A DNA stretch of 22,977 nucleotides from positions 1-22,977 of the forward strand of contig CAYVAH010000009.1 in assembly GCA_964449215.1 (NCBI GenBank). Direction: 5' to 3'. The translations under genes were made by a program, and so were the position numbers. Positions 1 through 22,977 of this stretch are shown in pieces; position 1 is the first letter of the stretch, and every line of letters begins with the position of its first letter. The notes beneath the pieces were generated by a model. It was given only the letters and a program-made list of their open reading frames with translations, was not told where the DNA came from and did not search any database. Source of the DNA: Candidatus Undinarchaeota archaeon (lineage in GTDB: Archaea; SpSt-1190).

Positions 1-40
1 GGGAAACCAGGATGGTTGTCGGGGCATCTTCCCCCAAATC

Positions 41-73: not shown

Positions 74-484
74 TCAGGAGCCACTGCGCACAACAACGCG
101 GTAGTATGTGGTGCTCCCTGCTGTCGGGGACTTGCGCTTTATTTCGAGAACATCCCCGGGCCTTGCACCCAGAAGCATAACTATCGGGTCCTTGTCAAGA
201 ATTTTTGGGAGCTGCCACTTCTTGATTCCATATTTCTTGAGCAGTTCCGAGACCTCCTCCTCACCCATCACGCGGTGCTCCGGGACAAGGTCGTGCTCCA
301 TAATTTTTTTCCCTATGCCCATGAACTCCATGACATAAACCCGAAGTGTCTCCTCCGGGACATTCTCCACCAGGCGCTTGACAAGGTCTGTTTTCTTCCC
401 GCTCTTCCGAAGTCCTTCCTCGCCACAAATCCGGGCGAGCTCCCTGTAGCGCACCTTATTGAGCATCCGGGCAAGGTCTCTCAT
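74..484 (-). CDS. rpoH: DNA-directed RNA polymerase subunit Rpo5 (RpoH/subunit H) with N-terminal SAP-like domain
   Basis: The C-terminal ~78 aa match the Rpo5/RPB5-C pattern ([10 protein letters not shown]...LLKKYGI...[10 protein letters not shown]...[18 protein letters not shown]...YYRVV). Residues 8-38 ([31 protein letters not shown]) fit the SAP consensus. A TATA box ends 21 nt upstream of ATG 484. Confidence 0.95.
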
Positions 485-504: not shown

Positions 505-512
505 TTTATAAA
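505..512. promoter_or_regulatory. Palindromic TATA box (TTTATAAA) between divergent rpoH and proS
   Basis: Perfect palindrome. It ends 21 nt before the rpoH ATG, with a purine-rich BRE-like GAAAA immediately upstream on the minus strand, and 30 nt before the proS ATG, which has an SD-like AGGTG at 532-536. Confidence 0.7.
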
Positions 513-541
513 TTTTCACGTGAGCCATTGCAGGTGTATCC

Positions 542-1984
542 ATGAGCGAGGACTTGGGCATCACGGTGAAAAAAGTCGAGAACCCGGCAGAATGGTACCA
601 GCAGGTCGTCCTGAAAGCAGGATTTGCCGACTATTCCCCGGTTAAGGGGTGTATTGTGATCCGGGAATGGGGGTATGGCATATGGGAGCGTATCCAGGAA
701 TACTGGGACGCGAAGATGAAATCGCATGGAGTAAAAAACTATTATTTTCCCCTTTTCATTTCGGAGGGGCTTCTGAAGAAAGAGGCGGAGCATTTTGAGG
801 GCTTCGTTCCCGAGGTGGCATGGGTCACCATGGCAGGAGACAAGGAGCTTGAAGAAAGGCTCGCAATAAGGCCAACCAGTGAAACAGTCATGTATGCCAT
901 GTTTAGCAAGTGGGTCCAGAGCTACAGGGATCTGCCACTGCGGGTCAACCAGTGGTGCAATGTCGTCCGCTGGGAAACCAAGATGACAAAACCGTTCTTG
1001 CGGAGCAGGGAATTTCTATGGCATGAAGCACACACGGTGCATGCTACGGAGGAGGAAACCGCAGAGGAAGCAAGATGGGCAATTGAGGAATACGCCAAGC
1101 TGGCAGAGCAGCTCCTTGCAATACCCGTGATTGTCGGGAAGAAAACGGAGTCGGATAAGTTCGCCGGGGCCGACACCACATTTGCCATAGAAGCCCTTAT
1201 GCCTGATGGCAAAGCCCTGCAGATGGGAACCTCACACATGCTGGGACAGAACTTTTCCAGACCCTACGGCGTAAAATTCCTGGGGCTGGACGAGAAATGG
1301 CACCATGCCTGGCAGACCAGCTGGGGCACTTCCACAAGAATGATTGGCGGGTTGTTGTTGATGCACGGCGATGACAAGGGAGCCGTCCTTCCCCCTGAGG
1401 TAGCGCCCATTCAGGTGGTAATAGTTCCAATAATATTCAAAGGCAAAGAAAAGGCCGTGGTAAAGCTCTGCCGGGAACTCGAGAAGGAGCTGAAAGAAGC
1501 GGGGATCCGTGCCCACTTCGATGGCAGGGAGGGCTATACGGCGGGCTGGAAATTCAACCACTGGGAGCTGAAGGGGGTGCCTCTCCGGATTGAGATTGGT
1601 CCACGAGACCTGGAGAAGGGAGAAGTCGTGCTGGTGAGACGGGACACGGGAAAAAAGGACACGGCAAAACTCAAAGGGCTGACAGGGCTGGTGAAGAAAA
1701 AACTCAAAGAAATACAGGAGGCACTGCTCACCAGGGCAAGGAAACACCTCAAAGAGAATACCGTTAATGTGGAAACCCTCGGAGAACTGAAAAATGCCAT
1801 CGAGTCCGGAAAATGGGCAGTGATTCCTCACTGCGGAGAATCACAGTGTGAGGAGACACTGGCAGAAAGGGTTGAGGGCGGCCCCAGGGTGATTGCCTTC
1901 GAGCAACCCCCGTTGAAGAACAAGAAATGCGTGGGCTGCGGGAAAAAAGCAAGCTACTGGGTCTATTGGGGCAGGTCCTACTGA
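542..1984 (+). CDS. proS: Prolyl-tRNA synthetase, archaeal/eukaryotic type
   Basis: RPTSET, QWCNVVRWE, FLRSREFLWHEAHT, GTSHMLGQNFS and QTSWGTSTR motifs; anticodon domain GWKFNHWELKGVPLRIEIGPRD; C-terminal Cys cluster ending GRSY. Confidence 0.99.
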   Translation: MSEDLGITVKKVENPAEWYQQVVLKAGFADYSPVKGCIVIREWGYGIWERIQEYWDAKMKSHGVKNYYFPLFISEGLLKKEAEHFEGFVPEVAWVTMAGDKELEERLAIRPTSETVMYAMFSKWVQSYRDLPLRVNQWCNVVRWETKMTKPFLRSREFLWHEAHTVHATEEETAEEARWAIEEYAKLAEQLLAIPVIVGKKTESDKFAGADTTFAIEALMPDGKALQMGTSHMLGQNFSRPYGVKFLGLDEKWHHAWQTSWGTSTRMIGGLLLMHGDDKGAVLPPEVAPIQVVIVPIIFKGKEKAVVKLCRELEKELKEAGIRAHFDGREGYTAGWKFNHWELKGVPLRIEIGPRDLEKGEVVLVRRDTGKKDTAKLKGLTGLVKKKLKEIQEALLTRARKHLKENTVNVETLGELKNAIESGKWAVIPHCGESQCEETLAERVEGGPRVIAFEQPPLKNKKCVGCGKKASYWVYWGRSY

Positions 1985-2292
1985 ACCTCAAGCTCGGCCG
2001 CGGTTATAACCAGCCACTTGCGATCAATTCCATAGAGCCTCATCTTCCTGGCCTTGCAGAGGGACTGGAGGCGGTTCACAAAGGACTTCCGCTCCGTTCC
2101 CATAAGCAGGGAAGAAACATCTATGAACGCCACCCGGGAATTTCCAAGCCTTTTCTTCAGCTTGTTTATGTCCTCGGGCTCCCTGGCACGAAAAATAAGC
2201 ACCGAACTGAGTTTTTTTGGGGAGGGGCCACCAATGGAAGGCATAAAGATTTTTTCCCCGCCGAACATCCTGCCAAAAAGCTTTCTCAGCAT
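1978..2292 (-). CDS. sepF: Cell division protein SepF (archaeal type, divergent)
   Basis: N-terminal amphipathic helix MLRKLFGRMFGG, then a SepF-like core (VLIF...EDINKLKKRLGNSRVAFIDVSSL...FVNRLQSLC...LYGIDRKWLVIT); TATA-like TTTTAAA ends 21 nt upstream. Confidence 0.75.
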   Translation of the reverse strand: MLRKLFGRMFGGEKIFMPSIGGPSPKKLSSVLIFRAREPEDINKLKKRLGNSRVAFIDVSSLLMGTERKSFVNRLQSLCKARKMRLYGIDRKWLVITAAELEVQ

Positions 2293-4032: not shown

Positions 4033-4887
4033 GTGACCAAGGGAAGGGAGGTGGTCGCAAGCCTCCTCCTCATAGTTGCTTTTTTCATTCTGCAGTTCAA
4101 CCCCGTTTCCCTGTCCTTCAGCACCACCACCGTAATTGGATTGCTCCTGGTCGGCATCTTCGGGGCACTTGTCACCGTGGGAGGGATGATAGAACTCCCC
4201 TGGTATTACACCCTCCCCGTGGCAGCTCTGTCAGTTGTGGACATAACGGCCCTCGGGCTTTTCCTCTTCGCCCTTTTCGGGAGCAAGGCCGCCGACCGCG
4301 AAGAGGAGAACATGATAGCTCCCAGCGTGATGAGAATATGCAGTGCGGCATTCGCCGGCTACAGCTTCTTCGTCCTGGCAGCCGTCGCGTCAGCCTACCC
4401 CCTCATAGACTTTCACATCCCGGCCGCTGTGTCAGGGTATGCCGTCCAGCTTCTCGTCCCTTCAATAGGATGTGAACTCGACTACACGGGACAGGAGTGC
4501 GTGGAAAGCCTGGTGAGCTCCACAATAGACAGGCAATGCAAGGGAGACCCGAACTGCATCCGGCTTTTGAATGAGAACAGGGACACAATGGAAGAAAACA
4601 CACTGAAAGAACTGCAGGGAAGCTTCCCGGGGTTCGACACACAAAAGACGGTCAGGGAGATTCTTCAGGAGGCAATGAATATGCAGGTAACACAGATGAT
4701 TGAGCCATACAGGGACCTTTTCAAGTTCCTGATGGCATTCGTGATTTTCACCGCCTTCCAGGTGCTGGCAAGCCCGATGATCCTCGTCTCAACTGCAATA
4801 AGCAAGCTCACCCTCTGGCTCATGGAAAGAGCAAACCTGCTCACGAAACGGCTCATAAAGGTGGAGAAACTCAGATTCTCAGCCTGA
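4033..4887 (+). CDS. Hypothetical polytopic membrane protein
   Basis: About 4-5 N-terminal hydrophobic segments, a soluble helical region with 4 Cys (C-x7-C...C-x5-C), then a C-terminal hydrophobic helix and basic tail. Confidence 0.8.
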   Translation: MTKGREVVASLLLIVAFFILQFNPVSLSFSTTTVIGLLLVGIFGALVTVGGMIELPWYYTLPVAALSVVDITALGLFLFALFGSKAADREEENMIAPSVMRICSAAFAGYSFFVLAAVASAYPLIDFHIPAAVSGYAVQLLVPSIGCELDYTGQECVESLVSSTIDRQCKGDPNCIRLLNENRDTMEENTLKELQGSFPGFDTQKTVREILQEAMNMQVTQMIEPYRDLFKFLMAFVIFTAFQVLASPMILVSTAISKLTLWLMERANLLTKRLIKVEKLRFSA

Positions 4888-6814
4888 TTTTTCTTTCTTC
4901 AAGTTCGCCCGTCGAAAGGTTCACCCAGACCTGCTTCCGGGAGTCGGAACGGAAAAGCGCGAATGGCACGTATATCAGCTCACGACCTGTTGGCTTCACC
5001 CCCACAAGCTTGAAGAATTTCCGGTCCGGCTCAAAAACGGGTTCCATTATTCTCCCCTCCGGGGGGAGGTGGACTACCTCGCCATGGAATTCGTGGAGCT
5101 TCTCCGGAAAGCGAAGCTTCGGGAAATATCTCTTCGTTTCCCTGCCCCTCACCCTCACAAGACCAAGTCTCACAAGGCGGTTCAGCTGAAGCTTGACAGC
5201 CCGGGCATCGGCGCCGCACCTCTTGGCTATTTCCTCGAGGGTCCCGGAACAGGACATTATGCTCGCCGCCAGGGGTGTGAGGTCAACAAGTCTCTGCAGG
5301 CCCTTGGAACCTTCAATTTCCCCGAGAAGCCCATCAAAAAGGAACTCAACCTCCCCCTCCAGGCCAACACCCCTGACAAGCCAGAAAGGCCAGTAAACCT
5401 TCATCTTCACATTGAATTTTTCCCTCTTGAAAAACAGGAACCTCTTGAGCTGCCTGGAAGCAAGTCTCTCAGCCTCCTCGAGCTCCATAACTGGACGGAC
5501 CACAGGGATATTCCTGCCCTGCTTTTCCTTTTTCTTCTCCTCCCGCGCCTCTTCAATCTCCTCCTCGAGCTCCTCTCTGGAAGGCTCATGTATATCCAGA
5601 ATCGGCGCCCTGTCCACAGCGAGGGTGCTCCTCCCCTCGTGCTGGCTGAGCCTCGGACGGGCTTCAACCAGTGCCACCTTCGTGGTTTCCCTGTCACCCA
5701 CTATGGCCTGACCGACCCTCAGCTTGCGGATGAAGTTCACCCCCCACTCAGGAGGCATCGCGGCTGGCATGCGCTTGCTCACCGCCTTTATATCGTCCGA
5801 AAAAACGAGCTGATGGACAAACATTATGTCCAGCTGGCTGAGGACCTCGCTGTTTATGGCACTTGGCTGCTGTGTGGCAAGAACTATCGAACACCCGGGA
5901 CGCCTCCCTTGCTTCACATATTCAATTATGCTGTCACTCGCCGCGGTCTTCCGGTCCTTGGGCACCATGACGTGGGCCTCATCGATGAAGAGCCAGATCG
6001 GTGGAAAACGGACACTCCCGCCCAGAGCTTCTTTCCTGCTCTCAACCTTCCTGCGGTTGAGCGCCTTCCTGGAGAGGATGCCAACCACGAGGGCTGCCAC
6101 GGGTTCCTCAAGGAACGACACATCAAGCACCGTAACCGTCCCGGGGCGGGCCAGTTGCTCAAGCGGTGTGGCCTTGTCACTGAAGACCCCCCAGAACTTT
6201 GCACTCTCGAACCTGGAAATGACTCCCCGCCTCGTCTGCTTTGAGAAACCCTTGTCCTTGCTCTTCAAACTGGTATCTGTGGAAATAACCCGGATAAGGT
6301 CATCTATAGTGTAGTCCTCACCCGCCTTCTGAATCGCCCCATCTATCAGCAATCCTGCGGGGGAGAATCTCTCCACGCCGAATGAAAACGCCCAGTCGCT
6401 CGCCGTCAGCTCGGAAGGCTTGATTGAAAAAAAGCCATCATAGCTCTGCTTCGGAATATTCCTTGCACCCACAGGTATCAACACCCTGATATTGTCAAAG
6501 CCCCTCGGCTCCAGACCCCAGCCCTTCAGGAGCTCCACTTCCTTTTCCACCCTGTTCTTGCTCTTCATACTCCAGAAAACCCCAATTGGGTCCACAACTA
6601 TGCTCGCCACCGCATCATTCTTCAGCGCCAGCTCCTCGACTATGACCCCCATGGTGTAACTCTTACCGGAACCACGGGCACCGCATATGAACACCACATG
6701 CGGCTTGATTGAATCTATGTAGAACTCCTCCTCACCGGAGCGGCCCACGAAGAGCGCCTTCTCCATGCCATACTTCTTTATCAGGCTCTTGCTCGCACCG
6801 AACACCACTGCCAC
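4871..6814 (-). CDS. HerA/FtsK-superfamily P-loop ATPase (DUF87-like) with C-terminal wHTH-containing module; probable start GTG 6814 (647 aa), not 6949
   Basis: Walker A GARGSGKS, DPIGVFWSMK, Walker B LFIDEAH, arginine-finger/sensor region GRRPGCSIVLATQQPS. wHTH-like TLEEIAKRCGADARAVKLQLNRLVRLGLV. The extension to 6949 overlaps the opposite-strand Nudix gene and looks non-coding. Confidence 0.9.
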   Translation of the reverse strand: MAVVFGASKSLIKKYGMEKALFVGRSGEEEFYIDSIKPHVVFICGARGSGKSYTMGVIVEELALKNDAVASIVVDPIGVFWSMKSKNRVEKEVELLKGWGLEPRGFDNIRVLIPVGARNIPKQSYDGFFSIKPSELTASDWAFSFGVERFSPAGLLIDGAIQKAGEDYTIDDLIRVISTDTSLKSKDKGFSKQTRRGVISRFESAKFWGVFSDKATPLEQLARPGTVTVLDVSFLEEPVAALVVGILSRKALNRRKVESRKEALGGSVRFPPIWLFIDEAHVMVPKDRKTAASDSIIEYVKQGRRPGCSIVLATQQPSAINSEVLSQLDIMFVHQLVFSDDIKAVSKRMPAAMPPEWGVNFIRKLRVGQAIVGDRETTKVALVEARPRLSQHEGRSTLAVDRAPILDIHEPSREELEEEIEEAREEKKKEKQGRNIPVVRPVMELEEAERLASRQLKRFLFFKREKFNVKMKVYWPFWLVRGVGLEGEVEFLFDGLLGEIEGSKGLQRLVDLTPLAASIMSCSGTLEEIAKRCGADARAVKLQLNRLVRLGLVRVRGRETKRYFPKLRFPEKLHEFHGEVVHLPPEGRIMEPVFEPDRKFFKLVGVKPTGRELIYVPFALFRSDSRKQVWVNLSTGELEERKIRLRI

Positions 6815-6885
6815 AAGAAAGAGAGGTGCGGTTAGTAAATATGGATATCGCAGGAAGGATTTTAAACGTGTCTGGAAAGCATTCT

Positions 6886-7581
6886 GTGGATGTCTATGAG
6901 GGAAACAGCATCCGCGTGCTGAAGCTCGGTGTCCGCCACCCACTGGCAAGGGAAGAGCTTGACAGGGTCAATGGTTTTTCAAGTCTGCAGACAGGCGTGC
7001 TGAGGGTGAAAAGAGGCAAGGTGGTGGCGTGCCCGGTGAGATACAAATACTCGAGAGCCGCTGAAGAACGAGGAATCACATTACCCCTCATGAGCGTGAC
7101 AGGCGTGTCCGAGCACGAGGGGCGGCTTCTGGCAGGAATAAGAAGCGGGGATGTGAGGTTCCCGAATGTGATGAGCCCGGCACCGAGTGGCCATGTGGAG
7201 TTCAGCCTCACACCCAGAGAGGCAATAGAACTGGAGCTGCACGAGGAACTGGGGGTTCCGGGAAAGCCAAGGCTCATGGGCGCCCAGTTCACCCCCCTCT
7301 ACTTCTCGCTCATATACCACATAGAACTCGAGAGCGGTGAAGTCAACCCGAGCTGGGAGTGGAGCAACCTCTTCTGGATTCAAAAAGAAAAGCTCGACGA
7401 GTTCCTGAAAAAGAACGGCAAACTCCTCGGCCCCGGCTTCGCCGCCCCCTTCCTCCTTTACCTCCACAGGGAGGGCATTAACCCGGAGCCCATCGCAAGA
7501 AAGAACAGGTGGAACATCCGATTCGGGAAGCTCAAAGAGCTTGAATGGAGCCTCCGTGCTGGCCCGGAAATCCGTTTGTGA
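6886..7581 (+). CDS. Nudix-fold hydrolase (degenerate Nudix box); start GTG 6886 or ATG 6841
   Basis: SGHVEFSLTPREAIELELHEELGV resembles GX5EX7REUXEEXGU, preceded by GRLLAGIRS and followed by SWEWSNLFWI. TTTTAAA at 6860-6866 ends 20 nt before GTG 6886. Confidence 0.8.
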   Translation: MDVYEGNSIRVLKLGVRHPLAREELDRVNGFSSLQTGVLRVKRGKVVACPVRYKYSRAAEERGITLPLMSVTGVSEHEGRLLAGIRSGDVRFPNVMSPAPSGHVEFSLTPREAIELELHEELGVPGKPRLMGAQFTPLYFSLIYHIELESGEVNPSWEWSNLFWIQKEKLDEFLKKNGKLLGPGFAAPFLLYLHREGINPEPIARKNRWNIRFGKLKELEWSLRAGPEIRL

Positions 7582-14151: not shown

Positions 14152-17100
14152 TTACTTGAGATACAGCACAATACCGGCAGCCACAAGAAGGACCCCAAAT
14201 ATTGCAAATGTGTAGGAGCGTGACGGCCGCATCAGCTTCGCGGAGGCCCTGTAGCTCTCGACCTTCTGTATGCGCTCTATCTGGTCACTGACCTTCTCGA
14301 GCAATGAACGAGCTTCCTCGAAACTCCCCTCCTCCACAAGCTTCTTGGCAGCCGCAATGGACTTCAACACCCCAACATCAGTAACGCCCGAAGACTCCGC
14401 AGCTTCAAGCAGAGCCCTGACCTCGTATGGGGTTGGCAGAGTTACAGTCACATAGAACTCCGTGGAACCGCTCTTATCCGGATATGGCTTCGGATAAGCC
14501 CTCGCCTTCACGTAATACACACCTGATTTCTTGGTGTTGAAAGGCACGGAAATCATAGTGCTTGTCCCTTCCTCAAATGCCCTTTCATATGGCTGGATCG
14601 TCAGGTTGGTGTCAAATTCTATAACGTAGGTCCCGGAAAACTGGGCCGTCGTGAGGTTCAGGAGTATGCTCGCACCCGCAGAGGGGTCAAGCATTATTTC
14701 CCTGTCCGACCCGGCCAGTGTCGGTGTCACTTCCTTCCTCTCGACCGACACACTCACGCAACGGGGCTCCCTGTCCAGCAGGGTCACCGAGCGGACACAA
14801 AGGCTGTAATCACCCGGCCGGCTGGCAGACACCCCAAGCTCCTTGAAATCCCCTGGCTCGAGAGTGAAATCATATTCACTCACATCCATACCGGACTTCA
14901 CCACGTAAGAATCCCGCATGTTCCCGACATTGGTAAGCGTCACGTTCCCAGTCACCGTATCATATACCAGCCCGAGCTCCTGCTCAAGCGGATAAAGGTC
15001 AAACTCATACACAGGCTGCTGCGTCTGCACCAAACGCAACGAAACCCCGTCCTGCAACTTCCCGGACACATAAGCCTGGAAGCTCACCACGTAGTCTGTA
15101 TCGCTGTAGCTCTGCGGAACTGCAATGGTCACGGGCACCTCATCAATGTTGAAACCCTCAACCGTCACCTGTTTCAAGGGAAGCATCACAGCCAGCTCCT
15201 TCGGCGCACTGTATTTCAGCGAGACATTGATTGTGGGCCCCGAGTTCGAAAGCAAGAGCTTCACCCTCACATTCGGAGAACCGGAGAGGGGAACATATAC
15301 AACTCCCGGAGACACGGACGAGGATATCTGCTTCGGCACCTTTATAGTGACGGGGAAACTCTTGGTCAAGCTGTCGTAGTAATCAGCATAGAGCTTGAGA
15401 ACAAGCTCCGCCTCGCCTTCCTTGAAGTTATACGGGACCTCCACAACATCGGTCTGCCCGAGAAGCACCGATATTTCTCCTTGCTTCAACTCCCAGCTAT
15501 AAGTGTAGAAAGGAATGACCTGGCCCCTCTCATCCACCACCTTGGTTATGTAAGGGGAGTAGGAGCTCCCGGGGACCATTTCGGTCGGAACGGAGGCTTC
15601 GACACCTGTTATGTGACCGAACACGGGCAGTGAAACTGAAGCCTGCGACCCGTAGAAGTAGGGCACGGAGGCAGAGCAAGTCACAGTGTGCTTTCCGACC
15701 TTCATCGAAGACGGGTCAAACTCGAAAACCCCGCTTGCAACATATCTGCCATAAGTCTGTGACATCTGCTCATCGTATTGAAGGGTAATCGACTCCGAGA
15801 TGGAATCCACGGAACAGTATGCTTCCAGAGAGACCGGTCCTTCCGAAGAGTTTGCACTAAACATAACCGCCACTGAAACCGGTGAACCCTCACAGATATC
15901 GCCGGAACCGGAGCGATAATAGCACCCACGGCTTGTTGCTTTCGAAACTGTCATCTTGGTGCCATATATGGTATGAATTGTAACCGTGACATCGGTGGGC
16001 AACCTGTTCATCTGGCGGACAGAATACTTCAAAATCCTCGGACCATAAGGCCTGCCAAGATTTACTGGAACTGTAACCATAGCCTCGGGAAGTATTTCCA
16101 CACCGGCAGTCTCGACAACAGTATCATGGAGTGAGATGGAAACATTTTTCAAGAATGAGAACTCCGGCGGGATGTCCTGAAGGTTGCTCCACATCCCCTC
16201 ATCAAGGTCAAAGCCAATTACAGGTGAGTCTGTGTAATTTATCCAGAATTCGCAGAAAAGGTTCGGGGCCTCACCATGGCAAGTCCCGTTTATTACTGGC
16301 ACCCCGGGCATGGTAACCTCTTCTACCTCAGTATAGTCTGTAATGTACTGACAGAGACCACTTCTTATACCGCACATCCCTCCATCAATAATGGTACCCA
16401 ATCCTACCCCATCGCACTGTGGTGGCGCGTCACAATGCGAGTAACATATTGTGTCTTCCAACCCGGTAGCATACTCAGAACAGCAATCCCTACAATTGTC
16501 CGGGTCCTCATTCAACCCGGGTTCACAGAGGTCATTTCCGCAAGTATTGGTACAAAGACCCACAAGATTGTAATTGCTAGAGCCCCCGAAGTTGTTCAGG
16601 TCTATCCTCCTTTTACCGGAAATACTCAGGCAAGTCGAGACCTCACCATAACCGCCATTTGCAGTTGGATCCGCATTAGCACCATAAGTGAGGCAGCTAT
16701 CATTGTAATAACATGCAAATTCATCACCATTGAAGGTCTGAATGCTTGTGTCCTCCAGATTCCCTGTCGAAAGAAGACCAACCGAATGACACTTTGTGGG
16801 CGTTGATGGGAAGTTGAGTTCCGCAACACTAGTAACTTCGTTCCCCGAAGAATCCTTCAAGGTTGTGAACAGGTAGGAACTCGAACCTATTATAGACCCC
16901 GGGATAACGGGTGGACCAATCACAGAATCCAGCAGGTACGGTCCCCAGAATATGCTACCATTGACGGATGGCACACCTTGATAAGCTGAGGATATTGGGT
17001 CCATCAATTTGAAGTCCTTTGAAACCCCTCCAACAGTCACGGAAATATCCGTTATTGCACCCAGACCACTGAGAGTGAAAGTGTCATCAGTTATATCTAA

Positions 17101-20100
17101 ACCTAGGAAGTATGCCCTACAAGAGTCGATGTCATAACTACAATCGCCGAGCTGACACTGCTCCCATGTCAGACTGTTGTAGTCTTCTGCCAGCATAGTT
17201 CCGAAAAAGGCTCCCACAGCATCACCATCAACACATCTGTAACCACCACATATCGGGTTATCGTTAGTATCTCCCTGCTGTGGGGGGAAATTAGCACAGT
17301 CGGAATCACTCATACAAGCATCTGCAATCTCACAGAGGTCCTTTGATTCTACTACTAAGATGCTATCAAGGGAGTAGTCTGATGGGAAATTATAGGAACC
17401 TTCACTTTCCGTTCCTAACATAAAGCCGTAATTAAACTCCATATACGTGTCAGAACCGATAGTACCCATCTCCGCCTCCGATGGAATCACCCTTATGGGA
17501 CTACCCCCGGCAGTGCAGAACATCCACCCCTGACGGTCAGCTCTGTAGTCAATATCGCTCTCATAGAAATCCACACTCGACTGCCCACCTCTTCCATATC
17601 TGGTGGAACCTATTATTAGTGGATAGGAGTTGCTATCAAAATAAAGGGTGCACTTCCCTATTCTATCACAGTGGGGCTTGAAAGGCAAGACAAAACACAC
17701 ATCATATGATTCGCAGGTGGAAAGGGACTGCACTTCCATCCCAGACCTATCTTTGAAAACTATATGTGGTTCATATTCACTCCTGGGTTGACACCATTCC
17801 GTACACATTACACCACCTGCAGTTTCCCAGTCACACGCAGGGTCGGCACCACACGACTCGAAACAAGTCTTATTTTCACCATACACGGAAAATGCCATAA
17901 CACCACAATAGTCTTCCCTGCTGTCTTCAAGCCGCGGTATATAATCTGCAGATTTGCTACATTCTGCATTTATAGACACCCCTGAAGGAGCTTCGCAGCA
18001 GTCCCTGCAATTCGTATAATTTTCCCCTGACATATCGTCACATCCAGCGTATTCCTCGGAAGGAAAATCACTCCCCAAAGAAAACATCGAACCAGAAACA
18101 CTCACCCCCCTCCTATCAACACTCCACTTACAGGTGTATTCACATCCACTGGTGCATGCCAGACTCCCCTTCTCCTTCTCATCACAAGCAATCTTGTACG
18201 GTTTAGCCCCTGCAGTAAACTCATCATCATAGACCAGCACGTCTTCTATATAGTCCCCAGCATAACAAACCTGGCTACTCGTGGATTTTTCTATTGCAGC
18301 ACAGCGCCCAGGACTCGAATCCCCAAAGAAATAATAAGCAGCGGAGTCACCAACAATATATTTTTCAGTTATATTACAGATACCCAAACAGTCATTTGAT
18401 GAGTAACAGCTTTGCCCAACATCGTCATACAGCAGATTCATAGAAACGAGATCATCGCGATTGTAACTCCTATCATCGACACCATAAACCACGTGAACAT
18501 CACCGGAACAAGAAGAGTCAATAATACAAGAGTTCGGTCCTGAACCAAGTGAATTCACACATGTATCAACGATAACGGACCTATCAAGGCTATCACTATT
18601 GAATGTGCACGCAGAACTTCCGTCACATTCGCCTCCCGGTGGATATGCGAGCTCGAGGTCACCACCGAGAGCAGCACAGCCCATACCACTGAGGTAGTAA
18701 TAAATTCCTCCAATAGTCCTCGGCCACTTTGGCATTTCGAAGTTCAAGGTCAACCCCACTTCATCATATAGGGGTAAGGGTTCAGAGGGAATCCTCATTT
18801 CATAGCTCTGAACATCCAATGGTGTGAGAGGAACCCAGAAGAAATTCCCGTCATTCACACACATCCACCGGTCCCCCATAAGTTTCTTCACCCGTACACC
18901 ACCGTCAAAGGTCTCTACGCTCTCATCTGGGAAGAGCTCAAGGATGGCATCCGCGGAATTTGCATGGCACTCGTGTGTTGAATGTGAGCAGCTTATGCGG
19001 ACCTTGCGGAAAGATGCACCGAAGGGCACACTGACATCGAAACGGTCCGTTATACCCTCGTTGGTTATCACCCTTATACGAATACCGTCAATAGACACTC
19101 CATCCCGGGAACAGCTTGCCGTATCCGCTTCAGGAGGGAAAGAACAGCTTATGTCGGTTCCATACTTGACAAAGTGACCATCCTGTCCCAAGTATGAAAT
19201 CGAAAACTCTCCCCCATTCACCGAGGAAAACTCCTCGACTTCTAGAACCGTGCTTTCCTCATCGGTTCCCCCAAACCTGTCGAAAAGCAGAGTGCAGAGC
19301 TTCACTTCATTATCCTGATTGCCCAGACAGACCCCACGCTCTGCCGAATAGACATCCATGGTCAATGGATCCGTCCCAGTTATCTCGACATCAACAACTT
19401 TTTTCCCACCCCTACAGGCGTCCAAGGGATCATCAGGGCAGACTGTGTAGTAAGACCCAATAGAAAGCGTGACGGTATCCCCAGAAACGGTCCAAGTATT
19501 TTCTCCTATTATGAAGTAGCTGTCAGCCTCTTGGTCAAATACTGAACCGGAATAGGTACATATTCCAGAGTCACACTCCACATGTCCATTGGGATTCCTA
19601 CTGGTAGCACTGTAATATACAATCTTATCGAAGTCTGCGTGGACATAGAAAGACTTATTCAAACTGATGTCCTCTGCAATCCAGTAGCCTCCACACGCTG
19701 AACATGTTCCCGTATAGGTATCATTTTTATCCATCGGTGACCCAGATGCTGGCTCCCAAGTTGTTTCATCAGAACAGTCAACATCACCAGAACAGACACC
19801 GGTTTCGCTGCCGAATGGAATCACGCATACCCCAAAGCAATCTGAGTTGTCATTACACTTCACACCTCCATCATCTACTTCAAATTCAAGTGAATAGGTC
19901 CACAAACCGCTACCCCCGAGCTCATTGGCAGGACCATGAATGGAACATTCTAGCTCGAATTTCTTTGATGCCATGTCTTCTTTTGAGACGTCCTCAAGGG
20001 ACACCACTCCCCTGCTGATATCACTCAGGGGCATAGCACCAATACTGGAAACAACCGAAAGCTCATCATGGAGGGCGCATGTCAGTGAATACTTACTTTC

Positions 20101-22977
20101 ATCAATATTCAAAGGAAACCAGTATTCTGGGGGTGTGGCGTTGTATCTCAAAGCATAGTAAAAGTGGTAGGTGGGAGGATCTGTGGGTTCAATATAATAT
20201 TCTACAACTCCAGGGGTGAAGCTGCTAGTTACCGGATCCAGCGGAACGGGACTCCTCGAGGCCTCATCTATATATATCTCTGGAACCTGCCTGAACCCAC
20301 CATTCTCACAGCTATATCTGTATTTCCTATTGTTTATCGTCAGGTCCACAGAATCGCCCACCAGAATCTTATTTCCTTCGTAGCACTGGGCATCAACCTG
20401 AATACCTGGAGCATACACAACACAATCACCAACTTGCCCGGAAGCAGAAGACACACACTCAAGATAGTCAGGGATCTTCGTTACCTCCCCTGAAACTATA
20501 CTTATGTTCCCTCTTATCAAATCCAGCGAGAAACCCGAATCAGTCCTAATTGCCAGACCAACCTTTTGTTCATCACATATTATTGAAGCTGTATCACTTT
20601 CGAAGCTGGCAGTGCATGTCGTGGTACCCCCTTCCAAACCTTCGGAAAGAGCAAACGAAAGAGTAACACCATCATAGTTCACATCGGAAATACTTTCTGC
20701 ACTTGGTCCCTCATCATAGCAGTGTCCCTCAAGAGCAAGAATGCTCGCACTACCCAAGAAGGGGGCATCCCTGTCCGCCCAGTTCAAAGGATTGGGGGAT
20801 GTCGGCAGCGGGCACTGTGCACGGAAATTGTCCGGGTCAAACTTGTTGGTCCATTCTCCCCCCTGACACACATATTCTTTGGAACCGAGGGTAGCGGCAC
20901 ACCCCTCACCAACATTGGCAATCTCTTCATATGGGAACGTCTCCGGCCCCTGGCAATATGCCCCGGTTTCACCGCCCGATGCACATGACTCCCCCTCATA
21001 TAGGTCCTGGGTACAAACAATTTCATCACCAGCACCCGATACACCAACAAGGTAAGGATAATAATACTGCCCTTCAAATTCCGAGGCGCTCATCCACCTC
21101 CCCGATACACAGAAATAGTATGAACTCAGTGCCTCCTCCAGCCTACAGATACGACTTGTCTCACATTCCACATAGGAGCCGTCAGGACACGGATAACCCT
21201 GCAAAATACAGGCTCCCCCTGGACATATTGCTTCAGCTTCCAGAATATTCACGGGGTCTTCTGTAGCTATCGGACTATCCCGAATCCAGAAGCCCTTATT
21301 GGAATTGGCAAAGCAAGTGTAGTAGGAGTCGCCCATATCAACAAACCGGCATGACTGATCAGTTCCGACACACTTTTCCACCTGGCCACCGCCATCACAG
21401 AGATAACCCACACCATCATCGTCGACAAAGTCTCCAATACCTCCTGAATCCCCCCAGCCGTCCGTTGCCCAAACCCATCCGTTATCGTAGATGCATGTGT
21501 ATTCTGAAGAGTCCCCCACGGTCGCTGCTTCATACCTCTCACAGGCATTCCCGGGCAAGCAGGCTACAGCTCCACCGGCAGCACCCATTACACAGATATA
21601 ACCGGTCTTGCCCGGGTCGCTGGAAAGCCTATCGTAGAACGGCCCGTAATTACCGGTGGCCGGACCCGCTTTGAAAACAGGGTCACTACTGTAGTGATAT
21701 GCACAGAAATACCTTGTAGAGTCTATGTCGTAATAGTCACAGAGCGTATTGTCATTGCATTCTACCTTTGTTGAACTTACCGAACAACTCACGGAACACT
21801 TGCAAAGGATGTTCGAATTGTCTTTCGCATATCCATCCGAGCTTCCCTGCCTCCACAGGTAGTCCCCTTCATCATCCTGGAAGCAGAAGTAGTGGCCATT
21901 GCTGTCACCTTTGTATTTACAGATATCTTCAGAACTGCACGAAACTTCCTCCTCCCTAACAATATCACAGAGCTCGCCGGCAGGAGTCAAATAGTAATCT
22001 CCACCCGCAACTTGCCATTTATCTCCTGTGCAGACATATTTTGTGCCATTTATCTCCTCTACGCTACATAGGTGATCAGAATCACAGGGTGCCTTCCCGG
22101 AACTCGCACACACCACCGTATTGCCAGACCCATCATCAAAAGCATATGTGGCATCCGAACTGCCCACTTCTACCCACTTCCAGTTGCCATCGCTATCGCG
22201 GATACACATCACCACAGAAGTGCTATCTTGGGAATCGGTCTTGATGGTGCACGCCCTACCTGAATTGCACTCCACCGGACTTCCGCTTTCGCAGACATAC
22301 CAGGTGGAACTATCTTCAGAGCTGTATTCGAAAACCCGGGTCCCTATGCCCTCAGTCCATTTCCAACCGTCAGAATAGGTGCAGGTCATTTCCTTGCCAT
22401 CCTCGTCAATCTGGTGGCACATTTCTCCCTCAGATGAACAGGAAAAAGCTTTACAGGCAGAACTGCAATATGTAGAACCATCTTGACTGAAAGTTTCAGG
22501 AAGTTGCTCATCACACTCGCTATCCGCACCACAAGCCTCTTCACATGTCATGTCTTCTGAATCAAGGGGGCACCACGACCCGTCGAAACCCTGAGCTGTT
22601 GAACATGCTAGCAAATAATTGTAGTAAACTGAAACATCAGTATCATTGCACTCCAAGAAGTCTCCTGCAGTACCATATTTGCCAAAAATCCAACTCGTCT
22701 TAACGGGTGCATCTGTAGCACATTTAACACATAGTTTGTGAGTGACGTCCCAGACACCGATCTTATTGCTGGAGTCGCAATAATCAAACACGCCAGAGTC
22801 ATAATATACGCAACTCCCGCCTACTGCATCATCAAAAGTGCCACCAAACCGGGCGAACGGACTATATATTCTTACCCACGAGTCACCATATTTATCCCTG
22901 CAGGGGTAATCTACATGTTCATCAATCTCGTATGAACCATTATAGACCATACGCTCGGCATTAACATTCTGTGTGTC
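14152..22977 (-). CDS. Giant acidic cysteine-rich cell-surface protein, 5'-truncated by the window (at least 2941 aa)
   Basis: The frame has no stop from 22977 to TAA 14154-14152 (DTQNVNAER precedes the Met at 22950). Rich in C/D/S/G/Y/T with many N-x-S/T sequons; beta-rich Ig-like C-terminal domains, a helical stalk, and a terminal TM helix YTFAIFGVLLVAAGIVLYLK (14214-14155). Confidence 0.92.
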   Translation of the reverse strand, partial: DTQNVNAERMVYNGSYEIDEHVDYPCRDKYGDSWVRIYSPFARFGGTFDDAVGGSCVYYDSGVFDYCDSSNKIGVWDVTHKLCVKCATDAPVKTSWIFGKYGTAGDFLECNDTDVSVYYNYLLACSTAQGFDGSWCPLDSEDMTCEEACGADSECDEQLPETFSQDGSTYCSSACKAFSCSSEGEMCHQIDEDGKEMTCTYSDGWKWTEGIGTRVFEYSSEDSSTWYVCESGSPVECNSGRACTIKTDSQDSTSVVMCIRDSDGNWKWVEVGSSDATYAFDDGSGNTVVCASSGKAPCDSDHLCSVEEINGTKYVCTGDKWQVAGGDYYLTPAGELCDIVREEEVSCSSEDICKYKGDSNGHYFCFQDDEGDYLWRQGSSDGYAKDNSNILCKCSVSCSVSSTKVECNDNTLCDYYDIDSTRYFCAYHYSSDPVFKAGPATGNYGPFYDRLSSDPGKTGYICVMGAAGGAVACLPGNACERYEAATVGDSSEYTCIYDNGWVWATDGWGDSGGIGDFVDDDGVGYLCDGGGQVEKCVGTDQSCRFVDMGDSYYTCFANSNKGFWIRDSPIATEDPVNILEAEAICPGGACILQGYPCPDGSYVECETSRICRLEEALSSYYFCVSGRWMSASEFEGQYYYPYLVGVSGAGDEIVCTQDLYEGESCASGGETGAYCQGPETFPYEEIANVGEGCAATLGSKEYVCQGGEWTNKFDPDNFRAQCPLPTSPNPLNWADRDAPFLGSASILALEGHCYDEGPSAESISDVNYDGVTLSFALSEGLEGGTTTCTASFESDTASIICDEQKVGLAIRTDSGFSLDLIRGNISIVSGEVTKIPDYLECVSSASGQVGDCVVYAPGIQVDAQCYEGNKILVGDSVDLTINNRKYRYSCENGGFRQVPEIYIDEASRSPVPLDPVTSSFTPGVVEYYIEPTDPPTYHFYYALRYNATPPEYWFPLNIDESKYSLTCALHDELSVVSSIGAMPLSDISRGVVSLEDVSKEDMASKKFELECSIHGPANELGGSGLWTYSLEFEVDDGGVKCNDNSDCFGVCVIPFGSETGVCSGDVDCSDETTWEPASGSPMDKNDTYTGTCSACGGYWIAEDISLNKSFYVHADFDKIVYYSATSRNPNGHVECDSGICTYSGSVFDQEADSYFIIGENTWTVSGDTVTLSIGSYYTVCPDDPLDACRGGKKVVDVEITGTDPLTMDVYSAERGVCLGNQDNEVKLCTLLFDRFGGTDEESTVLEVEEFSSVNGGEFSISYLGQDGHFVKYGTDISCSFPPEADTASCSRDGVSIDGIRIRVITNEGITDRFDVSVPFGASFRKVRISCSHSTHECHANSADAILELFPDESVETFDGGVRVKKLMGDRWMCVNDGNFFWVPLTPLDVQSYEMRIPSEPLPLYDEVGLTLNFEMPKWPRTIGGIYYYLSGMGCAALGGDLELAYPPGGECDGSSACTFNSDSLDRSVIVDTCVNSLGSGPNSCIIDSSCSGDVHVVYGVDDRSYNRDDLVSMNLLYDDVGQSCYSSNDCLGICNITEKYIVGDSAAYYFFGDSSPGRCAAIEKSTSSQVCYAGDYIEDVLVYDDEFTAGAKPYKIACDEKEKGSLACTSGCEYTCKWSVDRRGVSVSGSMFSLGSDFPSEEYAGCDDMSGENYTNCRDCCEAPSGVSINAECSKSADYIPRLEDSREDYCGVMAFSVYGENKTCFESCGADPACDWETAGGVMCTEWCQPRSEYEPHIVFKDRSGMEVQSLSTCESYDVCFVLPFKPHCDRIGKCTLYFDSNSYPLIIGSTRYGRGGQSSVDFYESDIDYRADRQGWMFCTAGGSPIRVIPSEAEMGTIGSDTYMEFNYGFMLGTESEGSYNFPSDYSLDSILVVESKDLCEIADACMSDSDCANFPPQQGDTNDNPICGGYRCVDGDAVGAFFGTMLAEDYNSLTWEQCQLGDCSYDIDSCRAYFLGLDITDDTFTLSGLGAITDISVTVGGVSKDFKLMDPISSAYQGVPSVNGSIFWGPYLLDSVIGPPVIPGSIIGSSSYLFTTLKDSSGNEVTSVAELNFPSTPTKCHSVGLLSTGNLEDTSIQTFNGDEFACYYNDSCLTYGANADPTANGGYGEVSTCLSISGKRRIDLNNFGGSSNYNLVGLCTNTCGNDLCEPGLNEDPDNCRDCCSEYATGLEDTICYSHCDAPPQCDGVGLGTIIDGGMCGIRSGLCQYITDYTEVEEVTMPGVPVINGTCHGEAPNLFCEFWINYTDSPVIGFDLDEGMWSNLQDIPPEFSFLKNVSISLHDTVVETAGVEILPEAMVTVPVNLGRPYGPRILKYSVRQMNRLPTDVTVTIHTIYGTKMTVSKATSRGCYYRSGSGDICEGSPVSVAVMFSANSSEGPVSLEAYCSVDSISESITLQYDEQMSQTYGRYVASGVFEFDPSSMKVGKHTVTCSASVPYFYGSQASVSLPVFGHITGVEASVPTEMVPGSSYSPYITKVVDERGQVIPFYTYSWELKQGEISVLLGQTDVVEVPYNFKEGEAELVLKLYADYYDSLTKSFPVTIKVPKQISSSVSPGVVYVPLSGSPNVRVKLLLSNSGPTINVSLKYSAPKELAVMLPLKQVTVEGFNIDEVPVTIAVPQSYSDTDYVVSFQAYVSGKLQDGVSLRLVQTQQPVYEFDLYPLEQELGLVYDTVTGNVTLTNVGNMRDSYVVKSGMDVSEYDFTLEPGDFKELGVSASRPGDYSLCVRSVTLLDREPRCVSVSVERKEVTPTLAGSDREIMLDPSAGASILLNLTTAQFSGTYVIEFDTNLTIQPYERAFEEGTSTMISVPFNTKKSGVYYVKARAYPKPYPDKSGSTEFYVTVTLPTPYEVRALLEAAESSGVTDVGVLKSIAAAKKLVEEGSFEEARSLLEKVSDQIERIQKVESYRASAKLMRPSRSYTFAIFGVLLVAAGIVLYLK
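20845..22446 (-). repeat. 8-9 degenerate tandem Cys-rich protein repeats (~50-65 aa)
   Basis: Units begin FSCSSEGEMC, VECNSGRAC, APCDSDHLC, VSCSSEDIC, VECNDNTLC, VACLPGNAC, EKCVGTDQSC, VECETSRIC. Each is followed by a (Y)-x-C motif, usually a Trp 4-10 residues later, and a further Cys. Confidence 0.8.

Follow-up and report, generated by a model that had tools for sequence, protein, structure and literature searches.

An ORF of 136 codons near the start of the DNA analysed here (the window, 22,977 nucleotides long, from an archaeon of the phylum SpSt-1190) couples RNA polymerase subunit Rpo5 to N-terminal residues that read as a SAP domain. It raises the question of whether this extension is a genuine part of a core polymerase subunit and, if so, what it may do at the point where eukaryotic Rpb5 carries its jaw. 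The earlier note on this DNA knew of no described Rpo5-SAP fusion, and none was found in the full-text literature (main texts, mostly of non-subscription articles, without supplements). A 2026 survey of archaeal polymerase subunits covers Rpo6 and Rpo8, and its accessible passages on Rpo5 contain no SAP fusion (PMC13257274); the available parts of PMC13556214 add nothing on such a fusion, and those of PMC3906176, which report the purification of tagged RpoH variants from P. furiosus, describe RpoH without an N-terminal extension. In the accessible portions of structural papers from 2009 to 2024 archaeal Rpo5 has no N-terminal domain, which leaves the polymerase without the downstream-DNA contact of Rpb5 (PMC2675907, PMC3479171, PMC3906176, PMC11162788). 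Automatic annotations show both Pfam domains together. Each domain is known; their combination and its probable role are apparently new and the architecture apparently undescribed.

Domain architecture and modelled structure of SAP-Rpo5

The features of the locus are listed in Table 1. The C-terminal part of the 136-aa ORF is Rpo5, as had been noticed by eye: Rpb5_C (PF01191) matches with an E-value of 9.4e-30 (102.6 bits; cut-off 23.5) and NCBIfam PRK09570 (RNA polymerase subunit H) scores 109.3 bits (cut-off 83). The earlier note had also read residues 8-38 as SAP from their consensus positions (L8, V11, E15-L16, C20, G24-L25, G29, K31, L34, R37-L38). All 12 residues are found where it placed them, and the identity was confirmed by PF02037 (E 4.4e-07, 29.8 bits; curated cut-off 23.9) and by the best structural matches, which are SAP domains. 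This is the only SAP match above the cut-off in the host genome (788 kb, 95% complete), and the SAP search at E<=0.001 had matches in none of 14 control genomes. Among 32 aligned members of the family, PF02037 is found in 23 (best E 9.7e-12) and SAP_new25 in 25 (E<=0.1), against two for Rho_N (best E 0.051); no LEM match was listed in the profile comparison of these members. An assembly join as the source of the fusion was ruled out in a check of four sequencing runs: single contigs of X2 and X3 cross the whole gene and an X7 contig crosses the SAP/Rpo5 junction, while X4 covers the gene only in pieces. The SAP-Rpo5 fusion is a real, conserved architecture of a core polymerase subunit.

Table 1. 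Features of the SAP-Rpo5 locus, in window coordinates.
Feature	Position	Strand	Remarks
SAP-Rpo5 gene, 136 aa	74..484	(-)	ATG start; sole rpo5 found in the genome; outside the rpo2-rpo1 operon
Modelled four-helix SAP domain, aa 2-54	323..481	(-)	AlphaFold2 model; structural matches to FAN1, PIAS1 and Siz1 SAP domains
SAP core motif PF02037, aa 7-40	365..466	(-)	Pfam
GxKxxL motif G29-K30-K31-T32-D33-L34, predicted DNA contact	383..400	(-)	Same motif named as DNA-binding in rice SIZ1 SAP (PMC8064691, excerpts)
Short hinge, aa 55-59	308..322	(-)	Least confident model part, pLDDT 73-75 over aa 51-70
Rpo5/Rpb5 C-terminal (assembly) domain, aa 60-131	92..307	(-)	Pfam, NCBIfam, structure matches
TATA box TTTATAAA (505-512) and purine run upstream (513-518)	505..518	(-)	Box starts 28 bases before Met1

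The AlphaFold2 model (pLDDT 87.5, pTM 0.73) places N-terminal helices at residues 2-9, 13-22, 31-41 and 44-54. When it was searched against 48,161 chains, aa 2-57 matched best the SAP domain of FAN1 (Z 8.2, rmsd 2.2, 56 aligned), followed by PIAS1 (Z 6.1, rmsd 2.9, 55 aligned), rice SIZ1 (Z 6.1), SF3B2 (5.9) and yeast Siz1 (5.6). FAN1 (three rows) and these four proteins make up the top six non-Rpb5 rows and a seventh, with modest Z values of 8.2-5.6, such as the tool describes as frequent among helical bundles. The Rho N-terminal domain comes after them (1a62, Z 5.5, rmsd 2.5, 44 aligned). With a single-sequence model of aa 1-58 the leading matches were unchanged but scored lower (FAN1 Z 6.6); Foldseek on this isolated model returned nothing at E<=0.001, its top match being the rice SIZ1 SAP (E 1.1). 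The SAP assignment is carried by the Pfam score. The domain is modelled as a four-helix SAP of the FAN1/PIAS/Siz1 type, in which aa 2-9 align as helix 1 and aa 44-54 as helix 4; the latter segment had been taken for a helical linker following the SAP motif, a description that has to be given up, the hinge being limited to about aa 55-59. The core fold is that of 9bct_H, 8oki_H and 7ok0_H (Foldseek probability 1.00, rmsd 1.0-1.2 A). The whole model can be laid over plant Rpb5 (residues 12-132 on 7eu0_E 75-205; Z 12.0, rmsd 4.3, 106 aligned), so that the modelled SAP takes the place of part of the jaw; its orientation to the core depends on the region modelled least well, the hinge, whose angle is uncertain.

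Conservation was assessed in 393 rows with an Rpo5 domain. A profile of the N-terminal region gives 132 of them (123 distinct) at least 28 bits and the other 261 fewer than 12, a split that is partly circular since the profile was built from 32 members of the family. Position 31 is Lys in 121 of the 123 distinct sequences and Arg in two, G29 is kept in 105, and Gx[KR]xx[LIVM] is present in 103, the exact GxKxxL being found in only 69. In 122/123 sequences the domain carries a net charge of zero or above. The spacing from K31 to P68 is 37-39 residues in 120/123, and the six Rpo5 core positions P68, P93, D99, R117, Y127 and Y128, as well as R129, do not vary in any of the 123. In helix 4, R48 is conserved in 91/123 and Y50 in 75/123. 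One automatically named cluster of 57 members in the ESM Atlas (Rpb5_C 100%, SAP 19%) may be SAP-Rpo5's own.

Several other elements of the window were noted. Its first 24 nucleotides (1-24 (+)) resemble a 5S rRNA gene's 3' end, pointing towards rpo5; in four of five loci tested Rfam detects 5S rRNA just downstream of rpo5, the cut-off window locus being the one that gave no match. An Elp3-type gene lies upstream of SAP-rpo5 in 12/17 loci (crude motif test, short flanks), where proS is found in the window. At 4871-6949 (-) a 692-aa HerA-like ATPase (DUF87, HerA_C) has a weak TrmB-like winged-helix match near its C-terminus. The 104-aa ORF at 1978-2292 (-) has no Pfam or NCBIfam match; by eye, we take it to resemble archaeal SepF. 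A 2932-aa cysteine-rich ORF with a C-terminal hydrophobic tail (14152-22950 (-)), whose frame is open to the contig end and which has no Pfam match at E<=0.01, is probably a giant surface protein.

Translation start, distribution and gene context

Support for the long form had been drawn from a TATA box 21 nt before Met1. The support stands, with a spacing corrected to 20 bases between TTTATAAA and the ATG. A TTT-W-W-R hexamer starts 26-29 bases upstream of codon 1 in all ten genes of the window's family (f1), six of which begin with ATG and four with GTG. Genome-wide, the TTT-W-W-A hexamer has its peak at -28 to -26, where 92 of 672 crude gene calls carry it, with five genes or fewer at each position from -70 to -32; the SAP-rpo5 hexamer, at -28, is within this peak, and its distance from Met1 fits a leaderless mRNA. 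Lying between rpo5 and the divergent proS, the box is palindromic; for the latter it falls outside the peak (-37 from the proS ATG). A bacterial-type promoter scan is inapplicable to archaea, and its one terminator-like match equals shuffle expectation. For aa 2-57 the mean pN is 0.286 and the mean pS 0.818, compared to 0.265 and 0.815 for the core (45 non-independent pairs of the ten f1 genes), and pN is below pS in 45/45 pairs. Judged from these substitutions, purifying selection acts equally on the N-terminal part and on the core. That only a short form is made, from Met52 or Met55, with the extension as an untranslated open frame, is hardly credible. ATG or GTG does occur at position 52, 55 or 57 in 10/10 f1 genes, and NCBI annotates a short form of 79-82 aa for two of them (P0034, P0035). 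However, neither Met52 nor Met55, raised by the earlier note as starts that would speak against the fusion, is conserved (each in 6/17 genomes), five of the 17 genomes have no start codon at positions 43-63, every f1 gene combines ATG or GTG at codon 1 with the upstream hexamer, the cluster of P0035 also contains a 135-aa long form, and the excess of pS over pN argues against an untranslated extension. On this sequence evidence the long form is the real product, which flags a start-site error in some public annotations of SAP-Rpo5.

Within SpSt-1190, a profile of 33 close homologues found a single full-length, stop-free match in each of 17 genomes (eight at least 90% complete) from 13 genera and four families. 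Relatives that lack or disrupt the extension, which had been named as evidence against the fusion, were not seen among these genomes. PF02037 itself scores above its cut-off in seven of these genomes and has a match in ten, the other seven having none at E<=0.001. Member proteins are labelled 'Ca. Altiarchaeota' and 'Ca. Undinarchaeales' at NCBI. According to excerpts of the literature, SpSt-1190 is 'also known as Candidatus Altiarchaeota', is known from vents, has 4-Mb members (Zhang et al., PMC10936187) and is placed in DPANN Cluster 2 (preprint 10.1101/2025.11.11.687807). Two of the genomes (G006, G007) are 3.6-3.8 Mb, and the runs richest in this DNA are vent metagenomes, with no RNA data set among those listed.

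The fusion also occurs in Aenigmatarchaeota, in three of a sample of 151 genomes (149 with Rpo5) and in six of all 371 (E<=1e-38), and in a third clade known from metagenome proteins only; on one contig of this clade the nearest named relatives of a GTPase neighbour are labelled Undinarchaeota and Naiadarchaeales (48-52% identity). It was absent from a sample of 201 genomes from the phylum to which a Nanoarchaeota record belongs (E<=1e-34), from 151 of the phylum of an unlabelled archaeon (E<=1e-32), from all 133 of the Thermococcus phylum (E<=1e-38) and from 151 of the phylum of a Halobacteriales record (E<=1e-38), four sets without a positive control; the profile used gives known fusions E-values of 1e-45 to 1e-50. 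The range search did not knowingly include genomes of Altiarchaeota, Micrarchaeota, Iainarchaeota, Undinarchaeota, TACK or Asgard. The suggestion that this lineage added the module independently holds with respect to the eukaryotic jaw (all-helical versus PD-(D/E)XK), while confinement to one lineage does not. Core trees (74-75 columns) do not settle the number of origins: the AU test rejects neither a single clade for all SAP forms (p 0.147 with 48 rows, 0.232 with 45 rows) nor a single clade for all Aenigmatarchaeota forms (p 0.42, 45 rows). The fusion is a possible marker character for DPANN phylogeny.

In the host genome the operon rpo2''-rpo2'-rpo1'-rpo1''-L30e-nusA lies on another contig and has no rpo5 at its head. 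In 16 of the 17 SpSt-1190 genomes rpo1'' was found, and there it is separated from the fused gene by 26 kb or more or lies on a different contig; the fused gene was never seen at an operon head. The six Aenigmatarchaeota carriers share the order tRNA-Tyr, tRNA-Asp, rpo2. Three of them (G134, G695, G715) have a short rpo5 between tRNA and rpo2 and the fused gene elsewhere. In the other three (G032, G122, G678) the tRNA abuts rpo2, with no break in the sequence, and no rpo5 other than the fused gene was found (the tRNA of G032, which contains introns, was misnamed by a relaxed scan); this empty operon slot implies that the fused form can stand in as polymerase subunit. The distribution of the genes argues that SAP-Rpo5 is the organism's working Rpo5. 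An accessory or regulatory paralog, distinct from the standard subunit, is very unlikely: three genomes with both genes and the lack of any fused gene heading an rpo operon would agree with it, but the fused form is the only Rpo5 found in 17/17 SpSt-1190 genomes, including the eight most complete, and in the three Aenigmatarchaeota with an empty slot. Since the fused form is the sole Rpo5 there, the paralog reading can hold only for the two-copy genomes. For the working subunit, the fused gene may have begun as a second copy outside the rpo operon that then displaced the short operon copy; displacement of the ancestral short copy by a relocated SAP-bearing one would be expected to give the context pattern observed.

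Further observations were made at these loci. The short rpo5 of G121 (L033) and the SAP-rpo5 of G134 (L030) apparently have the same convergent downstream neighbour, hinting at SAP gain or loss at one relocated site. Rpo1'' of G032 (855 aa; L138:3827-6391 (-)) and Rpo2' of G122 (1453 aa; L139:3006-7364 (+)) are far above their usual length, possibly due to inteins. An Era-like GTPase carries an inserted SAP domain (L054:1333-1899 (+); P0374-P0418; PF02037 24.9 bits). Among its 120 listed homologues, 45 are at least 265 aa long, the named ones being from Undinarchaeota or Naiadarchaeales, and the best 12 listed score 32-40 bits on the Rpo5-SAP profile. It is a second unusual SAP fusion and possibly the source of the Rpo5 module.

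A predicted grip on downstream DNA

We propose that the SAP domain probably holds downstream DNA in a non-specific grip, with the Rpb5 jaw and Rpo13 as unrelated analogues. Both its DNA binding, for which motif and charge speak, and its position at the jaw site, taken from the model, are inferred. The Rpo5 N-terminus faces the downstream channel (PMC2675907, excerpts). Because about five residues join the SAP to the start of the assembly domain, this basic module must lie near the downstream-DNA site. On such a hinge it would occupy the groove that separates Rpo5 from the clamp head, in which Rpo13 docks in Sulfolobales and which the eukaryotic jaw partly fills, as described in the same source. 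Its basic GxKxxL loop would bind the incoming duplex weakly and without sequence specificity. In rice SIZ1 the SAP is a four-helix bundle and this motif was identified as the DNA-binding site by NMR titration (excerpts of a review, PMC8064691). Like Rpo13 and the Rpb5 jaw, the grip would stabilise both the open complex and the polymerase during elongation. Rpo13 is reported to bind dsDNA non-specifically with a Kd of about 2 uM, and the accessible text of the same paper calls the jaw a 'guard rail' and speculates on analogous factors in that void in other archaea (Wojtas et al. 2012, PMC3479171). The Pyrococcus elongation complex has no Rpb5-type contact in the parts available, and Thermococcales transcribe without such a domain (PMC11162788). 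Besides the modest structural scores and the protein binding known for other SAP domains, it weighs against a grip that the exact motif is present in only 69/123 sequences, that seven of the 17 genomes give no PF02037 match at E<=0.001, that Thermococcales do without such a domain and no compensating loss was seen here, and that three Aenigmatarchaeota also keep a short rpo5.

Compensation for a missing part was considered and rejected for SpSt-1190: Rpo1'' (jaw) and the clamp head of Rpo1' show no large gap when aligned to Pyrococcus, and 17/17 genomes have TFE-alpha. Only weak partial TFE matches were found in five of the six Aenigmatarchaeota carriers searched (carriers only). G006 and G007 each have four TFE-alpha matches above the cut-off, compared to one in each of the other 15 SpSt-1190 genomes.

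It is unlikely that the domain acts instead through proteins alone, stiffening the enzyme as it packs into the Rpo5/clamp-head groove, or recruiting a transcription factor, with no contact to DNA. The helices of Rpo13 mediate its docking in the groove (PMC3479171, excerpts) and SAP domains of PIAS/Siz1 also bind proteins (p53, RFA2; PMC8064691, excerpts), while R48 and Y50 of helix 4 could form an interface; yet conservation is highest at the exposed Lys of the DNA-binding motif (Lys or Arg in 123/123), the domain is basic, and contact with protein can coexist with a grip on DNA. Alternatively, the domain could bind a different nucleic acid, either nascent RNA or, in trans, chromosomal DNA, and would then tether or concentrate the polymerase rather than guide downstream DNA. 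The structural match to the Rho N-terminal domain and the related SAP module inserted in the Era-like GTPase of related DPANN archaea, a use outside the polymerase, are in line with this reading, which we nevertheless regard as quite unlikely: the hinge is short and of fixed length, the N-terminus it extends from faces the downstream channel, and Rho_N scores in only two of 32 members. RNA exits on the other side of the clamp.

SAP-Rpo5 is a concrete candidate for the predicted gap filler, being small, phylum-wide and under purifying selection. If the downstream-DNA grip is correct, the same polymerase site would have been filled repeatedly by unrelated folds. The fusion also puts SAP, known mostly from eukaryotic chromatin proteins, into the core transcription machine of an archaeon. 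It is possible, although on balance doubtful, that SAP-Rpo5 is an undescribed, independent grip caught in mid-takeover. Both forms would then be functional and exchangeable in the two-copy Aenigmatarchaeota, one cell holding two RNA polymerases that differ at the jaw, and elsewhere the SAP form would have replaced the ancestral subunit phylum-wide. Such a two-polymerase archaeal cell would be a prokaryotic parallel to the paralogous Rpb5 of plant Pol IV/V.

Comparison with known subunits and SAP proteins

The C-terminal 72 residues of SAP-Rpo5 are like those of archaeal Rpo5/RpoH (PF01191, PRK09570; 4qiw_H, 8cro_H), with an E-value of 6e-25 to T. kodakarensis subunit H and a fold rmsd of about 1 A. 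The solved archaeal chains have 77-84 aa and no N-terminal domain, whereas SAP-Rpo5 has an extra SAP of 55 residues and its gene is outside the rpo2-rpo1 operon. The SAP domains of FAN1, PIAS1 and Siz1 likewise have four helices with GxKxxL between helices 2 and 3; they are found in eukaryotic nucleases and SUMO ligases, none in an RNA polymerase, and their identity to SAP-Rpo5 is 14-28%.

Eukaryotic Rpb5 is also a two-domain protein whose extra domain, the jaw that guides downstream DNA, is joined at the same point (PMC3479171 and PMC2675907, excerpts). The jaw comprises about 130 residues with a PD-(D/E)XK nuclease fold (PMC3424549, excerpts), in contrast to the 55 all-helical residues of the SAP. 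The jaw family PF03871 (Rpb5_N) has no match in SAP-Rpo5 at E<=10, and in a profile comparison with a 206-aa Rpb5-type protein only 76 C-terminal columns align. The SAP is an analogue of the jaw, not a homologue. The rule that archaeal Rpo5 corresponds to the C-terminal domain only agrees with the solved chains but may not cover long forms of 178-190 aa (P0076, P0134, P0136, P0147, P0148, P0178), which carry an N-terminal Mrr_cat or inactive nuclease-fold domain. These are also Rpo5 proteins with an N-terminal domain; unlike the SAP, theirs has a nuclease fold like the eukaryotic jaw, and it scores below 6 bits on the SAP-region profile. They are candidate prokaryotic counterparts of the Rpb5 jaw.

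Rpo13 of Sulfolobales, also a small helical element in the Rpo5/clamp-head groove with non-specific dsDNA binding, would be the closest functional model. It does not appear among the top 50 structural matches listed for the model, although a likeness may still exist. With its helix-turn-helix core Rpo13 forms a subunit of its own and contacts DNA by way of a flexible lysine-rich tail, whereas the SAP module of SAP-Rpo5 is fused and folded.
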